DNA from: Escherichia phage PECP14
Reading direction: 5' to 3' (one strand)
DNA: 64,000 nucleotides
Sequence record: OQ870555.1
Shown: piece after piece, positions 2,789-63,499 of the stretch
Position numbering within the stretch: the stretch's first letter is position 1
Layout of the letters: each line of letters begins with the position of its first letter
Position numbers and translations under genes: made by a program
The notes under the pieces: model-generated
Databases searched by the model: none
Told to the model about the DNA's origin: nothing
The model's input: only the letters and a program-made list of their open reading frames with translations

Positions 2789-3790
2789 TTATTCTGTTTC
2801 GGCGCTTTGAGTAAAGGTAGAAATGTCAATACCTTTTACCATTTCATCGATCATTTCAGCAATATTGAAACTCTGTACCATTTCCAACATTGCCGCTTCC
2901 ATTGCCGCGCCTGCTACCGCTTTCGCTTTCGCATTAGTCGGGGCGTACTGGTCAACCGCTACACTCAGCAGGTTAGCGATCACTACACGACCAATCGGCG
3001 TATCAATATAACCTTTAATCATAAACGGCGCTTTTTTCGCCGCTACTTTTGTGATTTGAGTCAGTGCAATTTTACCTGCTTCCAGTTTAGCAGCGTTAAC
3101 AACGGCGGATTTATTAGCGGCAACGATAGAAGATACTTTAGACATAATATTTCCTTTATTTTCAGTAGTTTGCGCATTTGCGCTTGAAGTTTGAGAGTTT
3201 ACAGCCTGTTTTGTTACGTTGTCAAGCGGTAAAAGTGTAAATCCAGCGTTTGCAACGTTTGATTCATTCCCATACTCTAAATAATCGTTAGGGATCAACA
3301 TGTTACCGCTAGCGCGTTCAAAACACAATACGCCAGTTGTTTCGATTGCGTCACTATCAGCACCTTTATAACTGGATGATAATTCACGCCAGATACTATT
3401 TAATAACGATCCGACACTATCAAGTCTGATACTATTTACTTTTGTTGCTGTTACCTGCTCTTTTTCTTGCACGTTATATAATCGCGCAATGTAACCATTA
3501 TGAGACTCACTATAACCAACAATGATAAAATCAATATCAGTTCCCCGACTATTACGGAAAATGTGATAATCACGGTTGAAAATTACTAGCGCCCTTGTCT
3601 GGTCTAGTAATAGCGTGAAATCATCAACTGAATAATGAGTATCATTATTGTCTAAAATTTCATCGTGAATCTTTTCTACAATAGTAGCGGTATGTTGTAC
3701 GCTTGCCGCACTACTACCATCTAGCAGGTTGCGCAAACTACCCTTAATAATAGTGGCGTTTGCTGGTACTGCAATTCTTACAGTAGACAT
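2789..3790 (-). CDS. hypothetical pre-early protein (333 aa)
   Basis: Long ORF with GAGGGAG upstream of the ATG; first gene of the leftward block; no motif recognised. Confidence 0.6.
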   Translation of the reverse strand: MSTVRIAVPANATIIKGSLRNLLDGSSAASVQHTATIVEKIHDEILDNNDTHYSVDDFTLLLDQTRALVIFNRDYHIFRNSRGTDIDFIIVGYSESHNGYIARLYNVQEKEQVTATKVNSIRLDSVGSLLNSIWRELSSSYKGADSDAIETTGVLCFERASGNMLIPNDYLEYGNESNVANAGFTLLPLDNVTKQAVNSQTSSANAQTTENKGNIMSKVSSIVAANKSAVVNAAKLEAGKIALTQITKVAAKKAPFMIKGYIDTPIGRVVIANLLSVAVDQYAPTNAKAKAVAGAAMEAAMLEMVQSFNIAEMIDEMVKGIDISTFTQSAETE

Positions 3791-57369: not shown

Positions 57370-57603
57370 TTATGATTCTTTGAGCAAAGAAGCAAGTTCA
57401 GCATAGACTTTATCTAACTCAAAGCCAATGCGAAGAGACACACGAGTCTTCCGTTGTTTAAGTAACCATATGGAGACATTAGGGATGCCAGCGAGACGAG
57501 GTGGTACAACCCTACATAGTTTCTCCGCAGTATCGTAAACAGAAGTTTTACGTTCTTTTATGGGAAACTTCCTTGTTTCCCACTTTTTATTCTTCACTGT
57601 CAT
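57370..57603 (-). CDS. hypothetical basic protein (about 77 aa)
   Basis: ORF with GGGAG upstream of an internal ATG; the listed longer form overlaps the upstream gene. Confidence 0.4.
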   Translation of the reverse strand: MTVKNKKWETRKFPIKERKTSVYDTAEKLCRVVPPRLAGIPNVSIWLLKQRKTRVSLRIGFELDKVYAELASLLKES

Positions 57604-60376
57604 TTCTAGCTCCCAATTCAGCAAGAGCTTCCTCATGCATCTGACGTTCTTCATCTGTCATAAACTTAACTGGAATCGGCATACATTCGATCTTACAGTA
57701 AGTTCTGTACCAGTCCACAATCTTTTCCGTATCCAGATCTTTACCGATACCCATCATGCCAAGATACATACGAGCATATTTTGGGTTAGCGCTCTGACCT
57801 GTCTTAAGGAAGAAATCCTTCTTCTTATTCTTAAGAGCTTCGATAAACGGTTTGATTGTTACGTTTGAACACTTTTTAATATCTTCCCAGAACATCTCGT
57901 GCATCTTATGGAAAAATGCAGCTCGATCATTCGGTTTATCCTTGATATACTGTTCAACGTGTTCCACTGTTACATCTTTAATAGAATCCAGATGATAATA
58001 GCGAACCAGAAGTAACTTGGCTTCATAGGCATCTGCATGACGTGGTGCGCAATATTCAGGAGTTGAGTGCAGAATAGCTTTGATTCGCTCTTCTGTATAC
58101 TCTTTGCCTGCACCTTCGATAGTCCCCCAGCTTTCACTGAAGATATCAATAGTTGCACCTTGATCGAGAAGATAATAACGCAAAGTACTGGTATAGTTTC
58201 TAGATTCCAGCTCACGACGGCGTGCGTACAGTTGCTGAGCTAACTCAATCCAACCCTCGTCAATATTATATTGCTCGGAACCCGCAGAGAATCCACTCGT
58301 AGATTTATCAATAAAATAATAAATGTTCTGAGCACCACGGTCGCGCCTGATTGCTTGAAAACGCATGTTTGGCGCTTGGTTTGAGGTTCTAGTGATTACG
58401 AATACGTTATCAAAATAGTTAAAGTCAACACCACTCGTTACAGATGGACTACATAATAAACAATCAATCTGTTGATCAATTAGCTCATTAGTTGTATAAT
58501 CCAGAATACGTCGGATATCTACATCAGACGTAGAGTTTGAGTGAATTTCTTTAACTAACGCACCAGTATTACGACGTAATGCCATTCCCTTCTCATTCAG
58601 TTCATCCGGGCCACAGTCAGATACTAGGATTGATTTCTCCCCCATCTCTAAAGATGTTTGAAGTGCAACCCAAATACTGGATTCATCAGGGAATTCATAA
58701 GCATGAGCTTTCGCCAGCATTTTACGGTGGTGATTATAAAATGCGACTGGTTTATCAAAATCAATCAAAGAACCATAGGCTTCAATCGTTTCTGCACTGA
58801 TATCACCATCGGATAAGATAACAGTTTTAGCAGTAATAAGGATATCACGAAGAACCTGAATACATTCACGACGGTTTTTAACAACCGGAGCGAATAACAG
58901 ATCATTCATTACTGCGTCACATTCATCAATAAAGATCGTATCAATCTGACCCACAAAGCTCTTGAACTTATGGATAGAGTGAATAGTTGAAGACATACGA
59001 TCAATGGCACCACGTTTGAAGTTCAGCATATCAACTGACTTATCATACTGACCAGCACCGAATTTCTTCGCGTTAGAAGATACAAGTGCCCTAGTATTTG
59101 TGATTGCAATAAAGTTTCCTGGAAGAACACCTGCATCTAGCCACTTAGTTACTGCTGTAGTTTTACCCGTACCAAGACTTGCCTTAACAAATGTTAAATG
59201 TCCTTTTGGGGGTACAATGTTAATTTTCAGGTACGGAACTTCTGGTGGAGAATCTGTGTCTAGACGTTTTAATGGTACACCTTTTAAGTTTGGTGGAATC
59301 TCACGTTTGGAGTTATTTACAAAGGCTTTGAGAGCCTGCTTACGACCGTTATTAAAGTAATCTTGAATATTACGACTATTATCTTTAGTCGCAATATACT
59401 CAGATAAAGCTGGTTTAATCTCACGTTCTAACCACGTAAAGTCAACACCATCTTCTAACGCTCTGTGATAAAGTTTTGGGATAATACGCAGGTACACTCC
59501 ATCCTCAGCTTCTTCTAGTTCGCTGATGGTTTCTTCCACTTTATCAGATGCAGCCTTCTTGCCTTTAATTTGATCAAGTAAGGAGTAGAACTCTTCTTTA
59601 AACTCACCTCTAGTTGTTTCAAAGTCAACTAGGTTATTAGGTAGATTCACCTTCGAACCCTTAACATATACAAGACGTGGTTTATTCTCCGCTTTAAACG
59701 GATCGACTATACCATCATCAAATAAGGGATCTGCAAAATAGTGAAGCTGAACAGAAGAATAATAAGCTAAGTCAGCAATATCAAAGCCATACTTTTGCTT
59801 ACTACTGTCATTGATAGATGTAAATAAGAACTTTAACTGTCCCTGCGTTACCTTGACATTAGATTCTAGCATTAAGTGCATTCGGATACCTGGTTTTAAT
59901 CCAGCCGAAGACGATGCATGGGCAATAAACCCTGCATCAAGAGGAAACATATCCTCACTAATACTATTCAACATCTTAATAATATGACGTGCCATGCCAA
60001 CAAGATTAAACTTGTCATAGCCACCAGTATCTACAATACCATCCACGTCCATAGCAATAATATGACTAGGATTGGATACGTTAAAGTTTCCCCTGGTACG
60101 ACGCACATTATCTTTTGGAGCTAAACATTTACCACGAATAGCTACAATATGCGGGTCTTTGGTAAGACGACGCATGATAGGTAACATTTCAGCAAGGTTT
60201 TGCGGGTCAAGTTCTTCAAGTACATCAAATTTGAAGGGCATGGAAGCTGGTTTACCTTCTGGATGCTCTTTAGAGAATCGCTTTGCAAAGGTGTAATCTT
60301 CCACTTTGATCTCTTTCCAGATGCCAGTGGCTTTATCTCTGGAAAATCCTGCGTGACCTTGTAGGATTGAGAACAC
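57587..60376 (-). CDS. putative replication-origin-binding / SF2 helicase-like protein (about 930 aa; start uncertain)
   Basis: Walker A ASLGTGKTTAV and DExD-like IFIDECDAV; GTG at 60376 is preceded by AGGAG, while the listed ATG at 60499 adds a Cys-rich, non-protein-like 41-aa extension. Confidence 0.65.
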   Translation of the reverse strand: MFSILQGHAGFSRDKATGIWKEIKVEDYTFAKRFSKEHPEGKPASMPFKFDVLEELDPQNLAEMLPIMRRLTKDPHIVAIRGKCLAPKDNVRRTRGNFNVSNPSHIIAMDVDGIVDTGGYDKFNLVGMARHIIKMLNSISEDMFPLDAGFIAHASSSAGLKPGIRMHLMLESNVKVTQGQLKFLFTSINDSSKQKYGFDIADLAYYSSVQLHYFADPLFDDGIVDPFKAENKPRLVYVKGSKVNLPNNLVDFETTRGEFKEEFYSLLDQIKGKKAASDKVEETISELEEAEDGVYLRIIPKLYHRALEDGVDFTWLEREIKPALSEYIATKDNSRNIQDYFNNGRKQALKAFVNNSKREIPPNLKGVPLKRLDTDSPPEVPYLKINIVPPKGHLTFVKASLGTGKTTAVTKWLDAGVLPGNFIAITNTRALVSSNAKKFGAGQYDKSVDMLNFKRGAIDRMSSTIHSIHKFKSFVGQIDTIFIDECDAVMNDLLFAPVVKNRRECIQVLRDILITAKTVILSDGDISAETIEAYGSLIDFDKPVAFYNHHRKMLAKAHAYEFPDESSIWVALQTSLEMGEKSILVSDCGPDELNEKGMALRRNTGALVKEIHSNSTSDVDIRRILDYTTNELIDQQIDCLLCSPSVTSGVDFNYFDNVFVITRTSNQAPNMRFQAIRRDRGAQNIYYFIDKSTSGFSAGSEQYNIDEGWIELAQQLYARRRELESRNYTSTLRYYLLDQGATIDIFSESWGTIEGAGKEYTEERIKAILHSTPEYCAPRHADAYEAKLLLVRYYHLDSIKDVTVEHVEQYIKDKPNDRAAFFHKMHEMFWEDIKKCSNVTIKPFIEALKNKKKDFFLKTGQSANPKYARMYLGMMGIGKDLDTEKIVDWYRTYCKIECMPIPVKFMTDEERQMHEEALAELGARNDSEE

Positions 60377-60872
60377 AACAATACTCCTATGTTGGTTATT
60401 CGGATATCTTTCTTTAGGACTATTCAAAAGAATAGAACAACTATTACTACCATTTACACAAACATTAATCATCATCAAGCAGTATGAATAAGTTATCATA
60501 CCTCAGTGCTGCGCTCTCTTAACTCTTATCCAGATCAGAACCTAGGTCATTGGCCGCTAAGCCGATTCTGATTGCCCTCACTATCCTATTGGTAGGTGGC
60601 TACTGGACGTGTCACCATTCGCTGCTCTTTTCGTTCGCACCCCCATATAAAGCTCTGCCTATATAACGAGCTAAATATGCACGGTTTGGATTTACCTTTC
60701 CGAATTCAGGGTACGCAGATCACTTAATTGATAATTAACTAATGCAGTATAAACACTAGTAATAGTTAAAACAACCCTTAATGGGGCAGCCTAACTGTTC
60801 CGTATTGCGGATTGTAAACAAGAAAAATTAGCAAAATCAATTTTTACTAATGTCTCTCAATTCAATATAAAT

Positions 60873-60901
60873 ATTATATCAAGATTTTGAGCATCCTGCA
60901 A
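60873..60901 (-). promoter_or_regulatory. Early promoter TTGCAG-N17-TATAAT
   Basis: Minus-strand -35 at 60896-60901 and -10 at 60873-60878; unusually far (about 500 nt) upstream of the next gene start. Confidence 0.55.
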
Positions 60902-60948
60902 GTAAAATTTTTCCGAAGGTGCTATCAGTGTCTTTGAGCACAGAGAAA

Positions 60949-60969
60949 ACCGAGTCAAAACGACTCGGT
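60949..60969 (-). terminator. Terminator ACCGAGTC-GTTTT-GACTCGGT followed by TTTCTCTG on the minus strand
   Basis: Perfect 8-bp stem plus T-rich tail downstream of gene 60993-61388. Confidence 0.6.
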
Positions 60970-60992
60970 AATCAGGATTGAGCTAATGAAAA

Positions 60993-61388
60993 TCAATCAT
61001 CATTTAGGCCTGGGACATAGATTCCAATGCGATTTAATCGACCTTTAGCTTCTTCGAGAATATCTTCGGTGTACTCCCAAATATCATCTTCTACTTGCAA
61101 AAGATAAGGGGATTCACCAGTTTCGGGGTCACGTGTAATGGCTAAACCACGTGGATGGAATATAGAGAAGTTGAGGGCAACAATCAAGCCCATGCTGGAC
61201 AATTCATTCCAGTCAGCTTCCCAACCATCATCTTCATCTTCGTCCACAAAGACACCTACACTAGGGTCTGTTACAGAAGTAAACGGAAATGTTACACTAA
61301 CCTTGTCAACCCCCAACCAACGTGCAAGGAGCCCCTCAGCACGCTCTACCAAACTAGGATCTATCTGACGCCAAAATACTTGTTCCAT
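60993..61388 (-). CDS. hypothetical protein (131 aa), paralogue of 61398-61826
   Basis: Shares the pattern W..EL..MGL..ALN...F.P...TGE.P...QV...PGL with its neighbour. Confidence 0.5.
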   Translation of the reverse strand: MEQVFWRQIDPSLVERAEGLLARWLGVDKVSVTFPFTSVTDPSVGVFVDEDEDDGWEADWNELSSMGLIVALNFSIFHPRGLAITRDPETGESPYLLQVEDDIWEYTEDILEEAKGRLNRIGIYVPGLNDD

Positions 61389-61397
61389 TCTGCCTCC

Positions 61398-61826
61398 TTA
61401 AGCAGTTAAACCTGGGATCATATACCCGAAACGACGAAGTTTCTGAATCCCCTCATTTACTTCTTCGGGCGAGTATGACCAGCCCTCACGTTCATTTACC
61501 TGGAAAGCAGGAGCTTCACCAGTGCGATAATTTACAATAAGACGGTGATTTGCAGGCATAAACAGCTTATGGTTCAAGGCAAAAACCAGACCCATTTCAT
61601 CAAGTTCTTTCCAGTCTACAATCTCTTCTACTCCCTCGCCTAAATCCACACTAACTCCAATACACGGAGCTTCCTCTAGCGGGCCTTTAAAGGATAAGAA
61701 GATATCGTTATTCTCACACCAAATCTTGAGCAGATTGATGGTTTCATTATACATACCATTAGGGAGAGAGCGCCAGAAGTTGAGAAGCATAGGATTTACC
61801 TCTTTCATGAAAATATTATTGAACAT
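61398..61826 (-). CDS. hypothetical protein (142 aa), paralogue of 60993-61388
   Basis: See 60993-61388; tandem duplication. Confidence 0.5.
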   Translation of the reverse strand: MFNNIFMKEVNPMLLNFWRSLPNGMYNETINLLKIWCENNDIFLSFKGPLEEAPCIGVSVDLGEGVEEIVDWKELDEMGLVFALNHKLFMPANHRLIVNYRTGEAPAFQVNEREGWSYSPEEVNEGIQKLRRFGYMIPGLTA

Positions 61827-61828
61827 GC

Positions 61829-62368
61829 TTATACCTTAAGTTTCTGAAGAGCCTTACACATTTCAAGATCTGGACTAAATTCCAGCATATAGCTGATAGC
61901 ATTTAAATCTTGAAGGTTTATTCCAGTCCTGCCATTTACAATAACAGTAGGAAATTGGTACATCATAGCACCAGCATCATCTAGGACGCACCAATGCTTG
62001 AGCTTATGTTTTTCTACGAAACGTAAGACAGAATTACCCCGAGATAAACCACCTCCAGTAAAATCTGTTGTACCAAGAAAACGATCGATCAAACCGAGTC
62101 CGGTCATAATCTGAACGTTCTCCATTTCATTTCGTACAGAAAACCATGAAGATACCCCAACAATCATTATTGGGGATGGCTTAAGAAAGTTCTGAAAAGC
62201 CTGGAGTAATGGCTTGTAAACCCAATCACCACCAAAGAATAGCTTCTCACTATCTGGAGCATGATGGTGAGAGATGCTCGAATTGAGCACCCCATCAATA
62301 TCCAGGAAAATCACAGGAGTATTACTTATTTCCACCAGTAGCATCCCACGTCCAGACTTTAACTTCAT
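61829..62368 (-). CDS. HAD-superfamily phosphatase-like protein (179 aa)
   Basis: HAD motif I FLDIDGVL and a C-terminal VLDD motif; second HAD-type enzyme in the window besides dmp. Confidence 0.55.
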   Translation of the reverse strand: MKLKSGRGMLLVEISNTPVIFLDIDGVLNSSISHHHAPDSEKLFFGGDWVYKPLLQAFQNFLKPSPIMIVGVSSWFSVRNEMENVQIMTGLGLIDRFLGTTDFTGGGLSRGNSVLRFVEKHKLKHWCVLDDAGAMMYQFPTVIVNGRTGINLQDLNAISYMLEFSPDLEMCKALQKLKV

Positions 62369-62507: not shown

Positions 62508-62670
62508 ATTCTCCCTCCTTAATAAGGAACTCTTTCCATTCTGCTGTATCCTCATAGATAACGCAGAAATCATCACTCTTCCATGAGAAGTCATCAGTAG
62601 CAAATTCGAAACGGTAGCACCAACTACCGTCTGGCCATACTAAAAGATCACACATGCTTTTCTGGGACAT
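62488..62670 (-). CDS. hypothetical small acidic protein (about 60 aa)
   Basis: GGAGGGA upstream of the internal ATG; the longer listed form overlaps the Sir2-like gene. Confidence 0.35.
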   Translation of the reverse strand: MSQKSMCDLLVWPDGSWCYRFEFATDDFSWKSDDFCVIYEDTAEWKEFLIKEGEYGEEDF

Positions 62671-63499
62671 AAATATTTCCCTCCATAAAAGCTTCAACTT
62701 GATCAATAAAGTGTTTATTACCAAAAACTTCGGCAGCTCCAGCACGCCATACAGTAACACCACGTTTCTCATACTCAAGCTGTTCGTCATAACGAACTTG
62801 TGGGTTAACAACCATCATCTTAGTTCCACGACATACAGCAGGAAATAGCTCCCAGTTGAAGTCGATTACTTGGTTGCTACAACCTACTACAATAACCATA
62901 TCATTGCTAGTAAGTGTATCAAACAGGTTAATCTGACCCATATACCACGGAGCCGTCTCACCAAAGAATGTTACGTTTGGTTTTACCCATTCGTAATCCT
63001 CAGGGGCAATCGCAGTATACCCAACATCTTCGATGATTTGGTTGCGACCCTGACGATAGATCACCTCTTTCAAGTACCCGTGAGCGTGAATGATTTCATC
63101 ACGAGGGATACCAGCACGTTCCAGAAGGTCATCAACGTTAGTAGTGAAGTTCTTCACGCTATCCTCACCATAACGCTGGAACCATTCTGCAATTCGCAGA
63201 TGGGCAATGTTAGGCTCAACAGTCTGTAATTCCTGACGACGCATGTTGTAGAACTCATGAGTCTTGAGATACAGATCGTTACCATCTTTATCAATGCCAG
63301 GGAAACGAGCACTGAAGTAGTTAGGATCATCTTCACCACAGAAGCGACGGAAGCCAGCTTCAAAGTTAGGCAAGCTACATACTTCCTCTAGATCGTACTC
63401 ATCCCACAAGGATTTCCCACTAGCAGTATCAGTACGGAAAGCACGAACACCACTATCTACACTCAAACCTGCACCACTAACAACGATTAGTCTACGCAT
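62648..63499 (-). CDS. Sir2-family (sirtuin-like) NAD-dependent protein, no zinc-ribbon module (283 aa)
   Basis: Sirtuin signature motifs in order: GAGLSVDSGVRAFR, TTNVDDLLERAG, HAHG, PNVTFFGE, VVVGCSNQV; no CxxC zinc-binding pairs. Confidence 0.7.
   Translation of the reverse strand: MRRLIVVSGAGLSVDSGVRAFRTDTASGKSLWDEYDLEEVCSLPNFEAGFRRFCGEDDPNYFSARFPGIDKDGNDLYLKTHEFYNMRRQELQTVEPNIAHLRIAEWFQRYGEDSVKNFTTNVDDLLERAGIPRDEIIHAHGYLKEVIYRQGRNQIIEDVGYTAIAPEDYEWVKPNVTFFGETAPWYMGQINLFDTLTSNDMVIVVGCSNQVIDFNWELFPAVCRGTKMMVVNPQVRYDEQLEYEKRGVTVWRAGAAEVFGNKHFIDQVEAFMEGNIYVPEKHV

Follow-up and report, generated by a model that had tools for sequence, protein, structure and literature searches.

The described genes closest to the locus considered here are T5.106 and T5.107 of bacteriophage T5, coding for proteins of 142 and 130 amino acids (aa), respectively. 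The pair ends an early operon, T5.100 to T5.107, which begins after the nrdD terminator and is followed by T5.108, the gene for the replication origin-binding protein (OBP). The T5 annotation calls both products "hypothetical protein" and cites similarity to ORF91 (T5.106) and to an Aeh1 open reading frame (ORF). We analyzed their orthologs, hereafter A (the T5.107 ortholog) and B (the T5.106 ortholog), which are adjacent genes in a 64,000-nucleotide (nt) stretch of DNA, the window, from Escherichia phage PECP14 (OQ870555.1). The window is that of a T5-like phage, with 99% identity across 6.4 kb to the Salmonella phages 3-29 and fuchur (Epseptimavirus, Demerecviridae), and the A and B genes themselves are 99 to 100% identical to sequences already deposited. 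Our analysis revealed that A and B are an ancient, ordered and asymmetrically diverged pair of paralogs from a catalogued protein family.

Both proteins are recognized by the Pfam family DUF7415 (PF24187), with scores of 98.1 bits for A and 125.5 bits for B against a gathering threshold of 27, and both match phrog_2502 end to end (E = 4e-58 for A and 7e-60 for B), a group to which PHROG assigns no function and beside which PHROG 3954 is listed as DUF7415 related. In the fuchur record, both genes are placed under a single pVOG, VOG3964. Because the two genes share their Pfam, PHROG and pVOG groups, their paralogy is already implicit in the databases, and together with the T5 annotation these resources have catalogued both the family and the relationship. 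A search of NCBIfam with A and B returned zero matches.

A and B are an ancient and asymmetrically diverged paralog pair

The two proteins align without gaps in BLASTP, with 39 identities over 124 positions (31%; E = 9e-21), and their Smith-Waterman score of 170 lies far above the scores of 2,000 shuffles (28.1 +/- 4.9, maximum 61; z ~29). This pairwise alignment with shuffle statistics bears out the tandem paralogy that had been proposed in a sequence-only reading of the window. The same reading confined the similarity to the C-terminal ~80 residues. The motif W..EL..MGL..ALN...F.P...TGE.P...PGL does indeed lie there, corresponding to invariant or near-invariant columns when 21 sequences from the two ortholog groups are aligned, and the C-terminal halves contribute the bulk of the signal (z = 24.8). 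However, the N-terminal halves also score 53 against 21 +/- 4 for shuffled sequences (z = 7.9, with 0/1,000 shuffles as high) and, since they are thus homologous too, the whole gene was duplicated. The description of the pair as a diverged gene duplication therefore stands, but the accompanying term "local" is misleading, as the pair is present in ~520 T5-like records.

These records, in which B always precedes A, come from phages of Salmonella, Escherichia and Klebsiella. Searches by tblastn with either protein retrieved 522 phage records at a coverage of at least 80%, with matches at two places in every T5-like record listed. The number of records with the pair closely tracks the number with OBP, at 271 versus 269 in Salmonella, 134 versus 129 in Escherichia and 82 versus 81 in Klebsiella phages. 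Some T5-like entries carry improbable host names, among them "Campylobacter phage C13" (99.9 kb), several "Listeria" records and incomplete proteins assigned to Enterococcus faecalis, which suggests mislabeled or contaminated submissions.

Two relatives and a profile comparison give the polarity of the duplication. Klebsiella phage SEL21 codes for a B-like protein (155 aa) followed by an A-like protein (131 aa) between Sir2 and OBP and lacks the HAD gene that lies upstream of B in PECP14. In Pectobacterium phage My1 (Mccorquodalevirinae), the order is Sir2-HAD-x-A-OBP, with only an A-type copy. Against a profile built from 81 stand-alone members of the DUF7415 family, the A core reaches 71 bits and the A-like protein of SEL21 reaches 54 bits, compared with 23 bits for B and no score for the SEL21 B-like protein. 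A retains every residue that is conserved in the family core; in B, the core shows the substitutions HP>MP, GLA>NHR, RD>NY and S>A. On the basis of the single A-type copy of My1 and these profile scores, A is the ancestral, canonical copy and B a derived one whose core has lost most of the polar residues conserved in the family. The slot x of My1 (My1_101; L021 3245-3517) is occupied by an unrelated ORF of 90 aa, whose N terminus is hydrophobic and rich in glycine and looks membrane associated, which points to either a gene replacement or the site where the duplication arose later.

The sequence-only reading had taken the two genes for accessory or anti-defense genes under diversifying selection. 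The comparison of copy number across related phages runs contrary to the first part: the pair occurs in essentially every enterobacterial T5-like record, at ~1:1 with OBP, and the lineage is uniform in their copy number, order and synteny. A and B accordingly behave as lineage-core rather than accessory genes. Nor is diversifying selection borne out. The gene-wide Nei-Gojobori ratio of nonsynonymous to synonymous substitution rates (dN/dS) against T5, for which dS is near saturation, is 0.23 for A (68% aa identity, dN 0.25) and 0.10 for B (73% aa identity, dN 0.18), indicating purifying, not diversifying, selection on average. The same measure is 0.05 for OBP (94% aa identity, dN 0.04), 0.06 for the HAD gene (92% aa identity, dN 0.06) and 0.22 for the Sir2-like gene in comparison with T5.102 (62% aa identity, dN 0.30). 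At the protein level, A and B evolve 4 to 6 times as fast as the flanking OBP and HAD genes, and their N-terminal lobes change faster than their cores.

Organization of the locus

A and B close an early operon with the gene order Sir2 ... HAD-B-A-terminator, which sits between the nucleotide-reductase genes and the OBP gene (Table 1). The stop codon of the HAD gene is separated from the start codon of B by 2 nt. On the minus strand, the stretch from the stop codon of B to the start codon of A reads ...TAA GGAGGCAGA ATG, and the shortness of this spacer, together with its Shine-Dalgarno sequence, indicates that A and B are tightly coupled. The early operon ends at the hairpin that follows A, for which an RNA fold of -18.1 kcal/mol is predicted (z = -2.5); T5 has an annotated rho-independent terminator at the corresponding site downstream of T5.107. 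Where B starts is ambiguous, as the T5 annotation gives a protein of 142 aa and the fuchur record one of 130 aa; residues 1 to 11 of the longer form are predicted to be disordered.

Table 1. Features of the A/B locus in Escherichia phage PECP14, with positions in the 64,000-nt window
Feature	Coordinates	Strand	Description	T5 counterpart
Paralog B	61398..61826	minus	ORF, 142 aa	T5.106 ortholog
Paralog A	60993..61388	minus	ORF, 131 aa	T5.107 ortholog
B-A spacer	61389..61397	minus	9 nt, AGGAGG-type Shine-Dalgarno; read directly from sequence	
Intrinsic-terminator-like hairpin	60949..60969	minus	9-bp GC-rich stem followed by a T-run, 24 nt past the A stop; terminator scan	
HAD_SAK_2 phosphatase-like gene	61829..62368	minus	Pfam PF18143, E = 4e-19; same operon, upstream of B	T5.105 ortholog
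Sir2-like gene	62648..63499	minus	283 aa, PF02146	T5.102
A-OBP gap	60500..60992		~490 bp, non-coding; contains the terminator hairpin	
OBP ORF	57587..60499	minus	Longest form 970 aa, ATG at 60499	T5.108

The gap between A and the OBP gene holds weak sigma-70-like matches (e.g., 60840-60811), and the equivalent gap of T5 (~600 bp) carries an annotated promoter. The deposited OBP annotations, including that of T5, give a protein of 929 aa that begins ~41 codons further downstream than the longest form in PECP14, at an apparent GTG start near 60376. Among the upstream genes, the Sir2-like gene is one of the fastest evolving in the operon. The HAD gene is labeled "Sir2 (NAD-dependent deacetylase)" by RefSeq and by PHROG (phrog_18062), and Pfam shows no Sir2 domain in it; the label is probably a carry-over from the true Sir2 gene nearby. 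Some records name the same gene "RNA repair protein."

Predicted structures and the question of an internal repeat

AlphaFold2 predictions based on the family alignment reached a predicted local distance difference test (pLDDT) score of 90.4 and a predicted template modeling score (pTM) of 0.85 for A and of 87.2 and 0.82, respectively, for B. In both models, the chain adopts a compact two-lobed alpha/beta fold with an identical order of elements. The N lobe consists of a helix followed by strands, and the C lobe begins with a short helix that contains a Trp, continues through a helix of 13 residues and two strands and closes with a C-terminal helix. In terms of sequence, A comprises an N-terminal lobe, a canonical DUF7415 core at approximately residues 58 to 115 and a C-terminal helix with a PGL tail. 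B has a lineage-specific N-terminal lobe, a degenerate core at approximately residues 68 to 125 and the same C-terminal helix and PGL tail. In a viral structure library, only DUF7415 proteins matched these models, with TM scores of 0.83 to 0.89 for A-type proteins and with single-domain members aligning with one lobe. A search of the PDB with the predicted structures retrieved no fold match; by sequence, single-sequence searches of the PDB gave leucine-rich-repeat-like noise with no stretch passing alone, and the family profile found nothing there. The modeled fold is thus apparently new.

The two lobes resemble each other in the order of their elements, in that each presents a short Trp-containing helix, a helix of 13 to 15 residues and two strands, and the 53-position Pfam model of DUF7415 matches all four half-proteins with 44 to 73 bits, against the cutoff of 27. 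These observations would be explained if each protein contained two DUF7415 domains as an internal tandem repeat (four in the locus), forming a fused pseudodimer that mimics a homodimer of stand-alone members. However, the profile of 81 stand-alone members scores both N-terminal halves below 0 bits, and HHalign relates the N-terminal to the C-terminal halves with a probability of 17% over 14 out-of-register columns. Against the stand-alone members, HHalign gives the N-terminal halves 0.3% and the C-terminal halves 99.4%, and pairwise scores of N-terminal versus C-terminal halves are at the level of shuffles (z <= 2.3). The Pfam seed of DUF7415 probably mixes both halves of the T5-type proteins. 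We therefore consider the internal repeat to be a serious possibility that nonetheless falls short of an even chance; as a separate structural matter, it is compatible with every functional reading discussed below.

The DUF7415 core in other phages

When 1.84 billion representatives were searched exhaustively with a profile, 165 matches were obtained, some of them repeat artifacts. Long matches extending over multiple stretches (e.g., P0054 and P0068) proved to be due to perfect repeats and were discarded. About 25 of the 165 are two-lobed proteins of 130 to 160 aa, and the remainder contain the ~55-aa core alone. Pfam DUF7415 also matches 131 of the 133 distant relatives recovered with the family profile. 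A second family search gave 208 clusters, which are mostly stand-alone proteins of 60 to 70 aa from Pseudomonas, Klebsiella, Pectobacterium and others. The core, with the consensus DWNELS..GL..RIN.EILHP.GLA..RD..TG.S.G......W.Y over ~55 residues, shows strong conservation among the phages of Pseudomonas, of Enterobacteriaceae and of Aeromonas. The proteins are also characteristically acidic: 94% of the stand-alone members have a net negative charge (median isoelectric point [pI], 4.8), and A has a pI of 4.05 and a net charge of -19. Such acidity speaks against the binding of nucleic acids and would be in keeping with the binding of proteins.

Beyond the stand-alone forms, the core is fused to a range of other domains. 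Recurrent partners are a MazG-like pyrophosphohydrolase (many Klebsiella clusters) and a PF16473 3'-5' exonuclease (many Pectobacterium clusters). Further enzymatic partners are the PF04447 dATP/dGTP pyrophosphohydrolase, thymidylate kinase and DUF3850/ASCH, and DUF550 pyrophosphohydrolases are named alongside the MazG-like ones. The other partners include Lar, Cox, DUF551 and a ClpX-type zinc finger. The exonuclease fusions account for a label in the public records, where DUF7415 orthologs are inconsistently named "tail tube protein," "exonuclease" or "Phage exonuclease (ACLAME 70)": the exonuclease label found on some B copies arises because some relatives fuse DUF7415 to the PF16473 domain. 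We rejected it for the present pair, as A and B show only DUF7415 in Pfam and no exonuclease domain.

Gene neighborhoods present a similar picture of the family. In P2/186-like enterobacterial prophages, the DUF7415 gene belongs to an early operon, where it adjoins the gene for the initiator gpA (often at a distance of 2 to 3 nt) or lies one small ORF away from it, and the same operon holds a Dam methylase and a PF16473 exonuclease. In P2-like prophages, including those of Klebsiella and Enterobacter (at ~6001 in L009, L011 and L015) and L003 (at 3225-3680), the gene found 2 to 3 nt past gene A codes for a MazG-like or ASCH/DUF3850 fusion. Variable genes lie between the DUF7415 gene and the portal gene in P2-like prophages, in what is known as a variable or defense hotspot of P2. 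In T4-like phages, the surroundings are early genes of nucleotide metabolism and RNA repair: the DUF7415 gene of RB16 adjoins nudE. In Slopekvirus phages it overlaps or abuts nrdG, and in Aeh1 it ends the block td-HAD-nrdA.1-denA-rnlA-DUF7415, in which HAD and the DUF7415 gene lie within ~2 kb of each other. We considered whether HAD and DUF7415 form a general functional unit. T5 and My1 show this pairing, as does Aeh1 in a looser form, but Klebsiella T5-like phages lack the HAD gene and neither phiAS5 nor PM2 has a DUF7415 gene within 8 kb of HAD, so a general unit was rejected. Whether the HAD gene of the present operon belongs to the same functional unit as A and B is uncertain.

Proposed role and alternative explanations

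The recurrence of the core beside replication initiators and in fusion with enzymes of deoxynucleoside triphosphate (dNTP) metabolism and DNA processing leads us to propose, tentatively, that it is a protein-binding or oligomerization module serving the early DNA-replication and nucleotide-metabolism program of these phages. In other phages, it would act either as a stand-alone protein of ~65 aa or as a tag on dNTP pyrophosphohydrolases, a 3'-5' exonuclease, thymidylate kinase, ASCH or Lar. In the T5-like phages, A may be the binding-competent copy and B the degenerate one, the two probably functioning jointly as a hetero-oligomeric adaptor or regulator whose target would be a host or phage protein of DNA or nucleotide metabolism. 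We infer here that the core binds proteins, that A and B cooperate and that there is a link to replication or nucleotide metabolism.

Several observations weigh against this proposal. The fusion partners are heterogeneous, including Lar, Cox and a zinc finger, and the fusions may reflect no more than how often small early genes merge with their neighbors, and not a common function. The N, H, R, D and S/T residues that are strictly conserved in the core could mean ligand binding or catalysis rather than an interface. No pair detectable by tblastn is present in 357 Vibrio T5-like records that have OBP (at 37 to 45% identity); the pair would thus seem to be either specific to the enterobacterial branch or diverged past detection there, and its absence from detection in these phages suggests that it is dispensable for T5-type replication in general. 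In a Pseudomonas P2-like prophage (L006 6001-6210), a stand-alone DUF7415 gene for a 69-aa protein is located in the late operon, between the head-completion gene gpL and the tail gene gpX and just ahead of the holin, a position at odds with a role in replication alone. The function of P2 Orf91 is listed as "unknown." Finally, literature searches on DUF7415, T5.106 and T5.107 found no papers and no characterized homolog; searches on orf91 and on the essentiality of T5 genes likewise found nothing on function.

The position of the Pseudomonas gene between gpL and gpX, along with the several records that label an A- or B-type gene as "tail tube protein," might be taken to indicate a virion or morphogenesis protein. 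We consider this very improbable. The tail tube label was examined and set aside, since no such Pfam or PHROG match and no such fold match was found for the two proteins and the genes lie in an early operon.

The conserved polar residues are the basis of another explanation, in which the core binds a (deoxy)nucleotide or related ligand and regulates the enzyme to which it is fused, with A and B of the T5-like phages regulating dNTP supply. Consistent with such a sensor of nucleotides or metabolites, the N, H, R, D, G and S/T positions of the core are nearly invariant. The fusions are mostly to enzymes acting on (d)NTPs, on (deoxy)nucleoside monophosphates or on nucleic-acid ends (MazG-like, PF04447, thymidylate kinase, PF16473 and ASCH), and the neighboring genes include nrdD, nrdG, nudE, td and the HAD phosphatase. 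However, the domain is very small and displays no recognizable nucleotide-binding motif or fold, and partners such as Lar, Cox and the zinc finger are without a nucleotide link. Moreover, B lacks the conserved polar residues and is yet under purifying selection, so that a structural or interface role fits better than ligand binding. On balance, we regard a sensor function as unlikely.

Several features are compatible with the anti-defense function suggested by the sequence-only reading. On this explanation, A and/or B would be small acidic early inhibitors or mimics that neutralize a host immune protein, for example one acting in restriction, NAD depletion or dNTP depletion. Both are small and expressed early, A is strongly acidic, and they evolve considerably faster than OBP and HAD in an operon that also holds a phage Sir2-like gene. 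Lar, a restriction-alleviation domain, is a fusion partner in relatives, the gene directly precedes the variable region after gene A in P2-like prophages, and a fold without a known match is common among anti-defense proteins. On the other hand, the gene-wide dN/dS of 0.10 to 0.23 carries no sign of diversification. Copy number, order and synteny are fixed in ~520 genomes, unlike those of patchy accessory anti-defense genes, and conservation of the ~55-aa core is strong in the phages of three host groups (Pseudomonas, Enterobacteriaceae and Aeromonas). Neither PADLOC nor NCBIfam provided a match, and no literature was found; the PADLOC search, in which A and B had no match at E <= 0.1, is a weak test, as its models cover defense systems and not anti-defense proteins. 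We therefore judge an anti-defense role to be improbable for this pair.

A more specific form of the adaptor proposal can also be conceived, although we hold it to be a long shot. DUF7415 would then be a portable docking module of a new fold that brings accessory enzymes of nucleotide sanitation or DNA processing (MazG-like, DUF550, exonuclease or thymidylate kinase) to a conserved hub of replication or dNTP supply, and A and B of the T5-like phages would be a free heterodimer controlling that hub. If this were true, A and B would channel dNTPs into phage replication or block a host defense based on nucleotide depletion.

Significance and comparison with known systems

T5.106 and T5.107 belong to the lineage core of early genes in a classic group of model phages, one in wide use for phage therapy and for the biocontrol of Salmonella, E. 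coli and Klebsiella. As the family and the paralogy of its members had been catalogued, the discovery is a modest one. What is new beyond the database entries is the polarity of the duplication, the purifying selection, a confidently predicted fold without a solved relative and the census of the core module. This census presents the ~55-aa core as a mobile module that has been repeatedly fused to dNTP-metabolizing and DNA-processing enzymes and that lies beside replication initiators. It also explains the "exonuclease" label; neither domain nor fold matches support the names "tail tube protein" and "Sir2" that circulate in GenBank and RefSeq. The phage Sir2 in this conserved early operon merits a separate study.

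Within the DUF7415/PHROG family, the T5-type members are distinguished by an added N-terminal lobe and C-terminal helix, which are missing from the stand-alone members of ~65 aa. The P2/186-like prophages, in which the gene occupies the Orf91 position after replication gene A, share with them the DUF7415 core (82 bits for gp44 of P2_4A7b) and the location of an early gene beside the initiator. They differ in that their core is either fused (to ASCH/DUF3850, MazG-like, PF16473 or Lar) or single lobed and does not occur as a tandem pair.

Anti-restriction proteins of the Ocr and ArdA type are small, strongly acidic, early-expressed phage inhibitors or mimics. A and B have small size, acidity and early expression in common with them, a likeness that is one of analogy only, as A and B bear no similarity to solved structures and no match to defense hidden Markov models; they are further set apart by purifying selection and fixed synteny. 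Among the closest counterparts are T5.106 and T5.107 themselves, with 73% and 68% aa identity, respectively, the same gene order, the same placement at the end of the operon ahead of a terminator and the same flanking genes, namely, Sir2, the T5.105 HAD gene and the T5.108 OBP gene.

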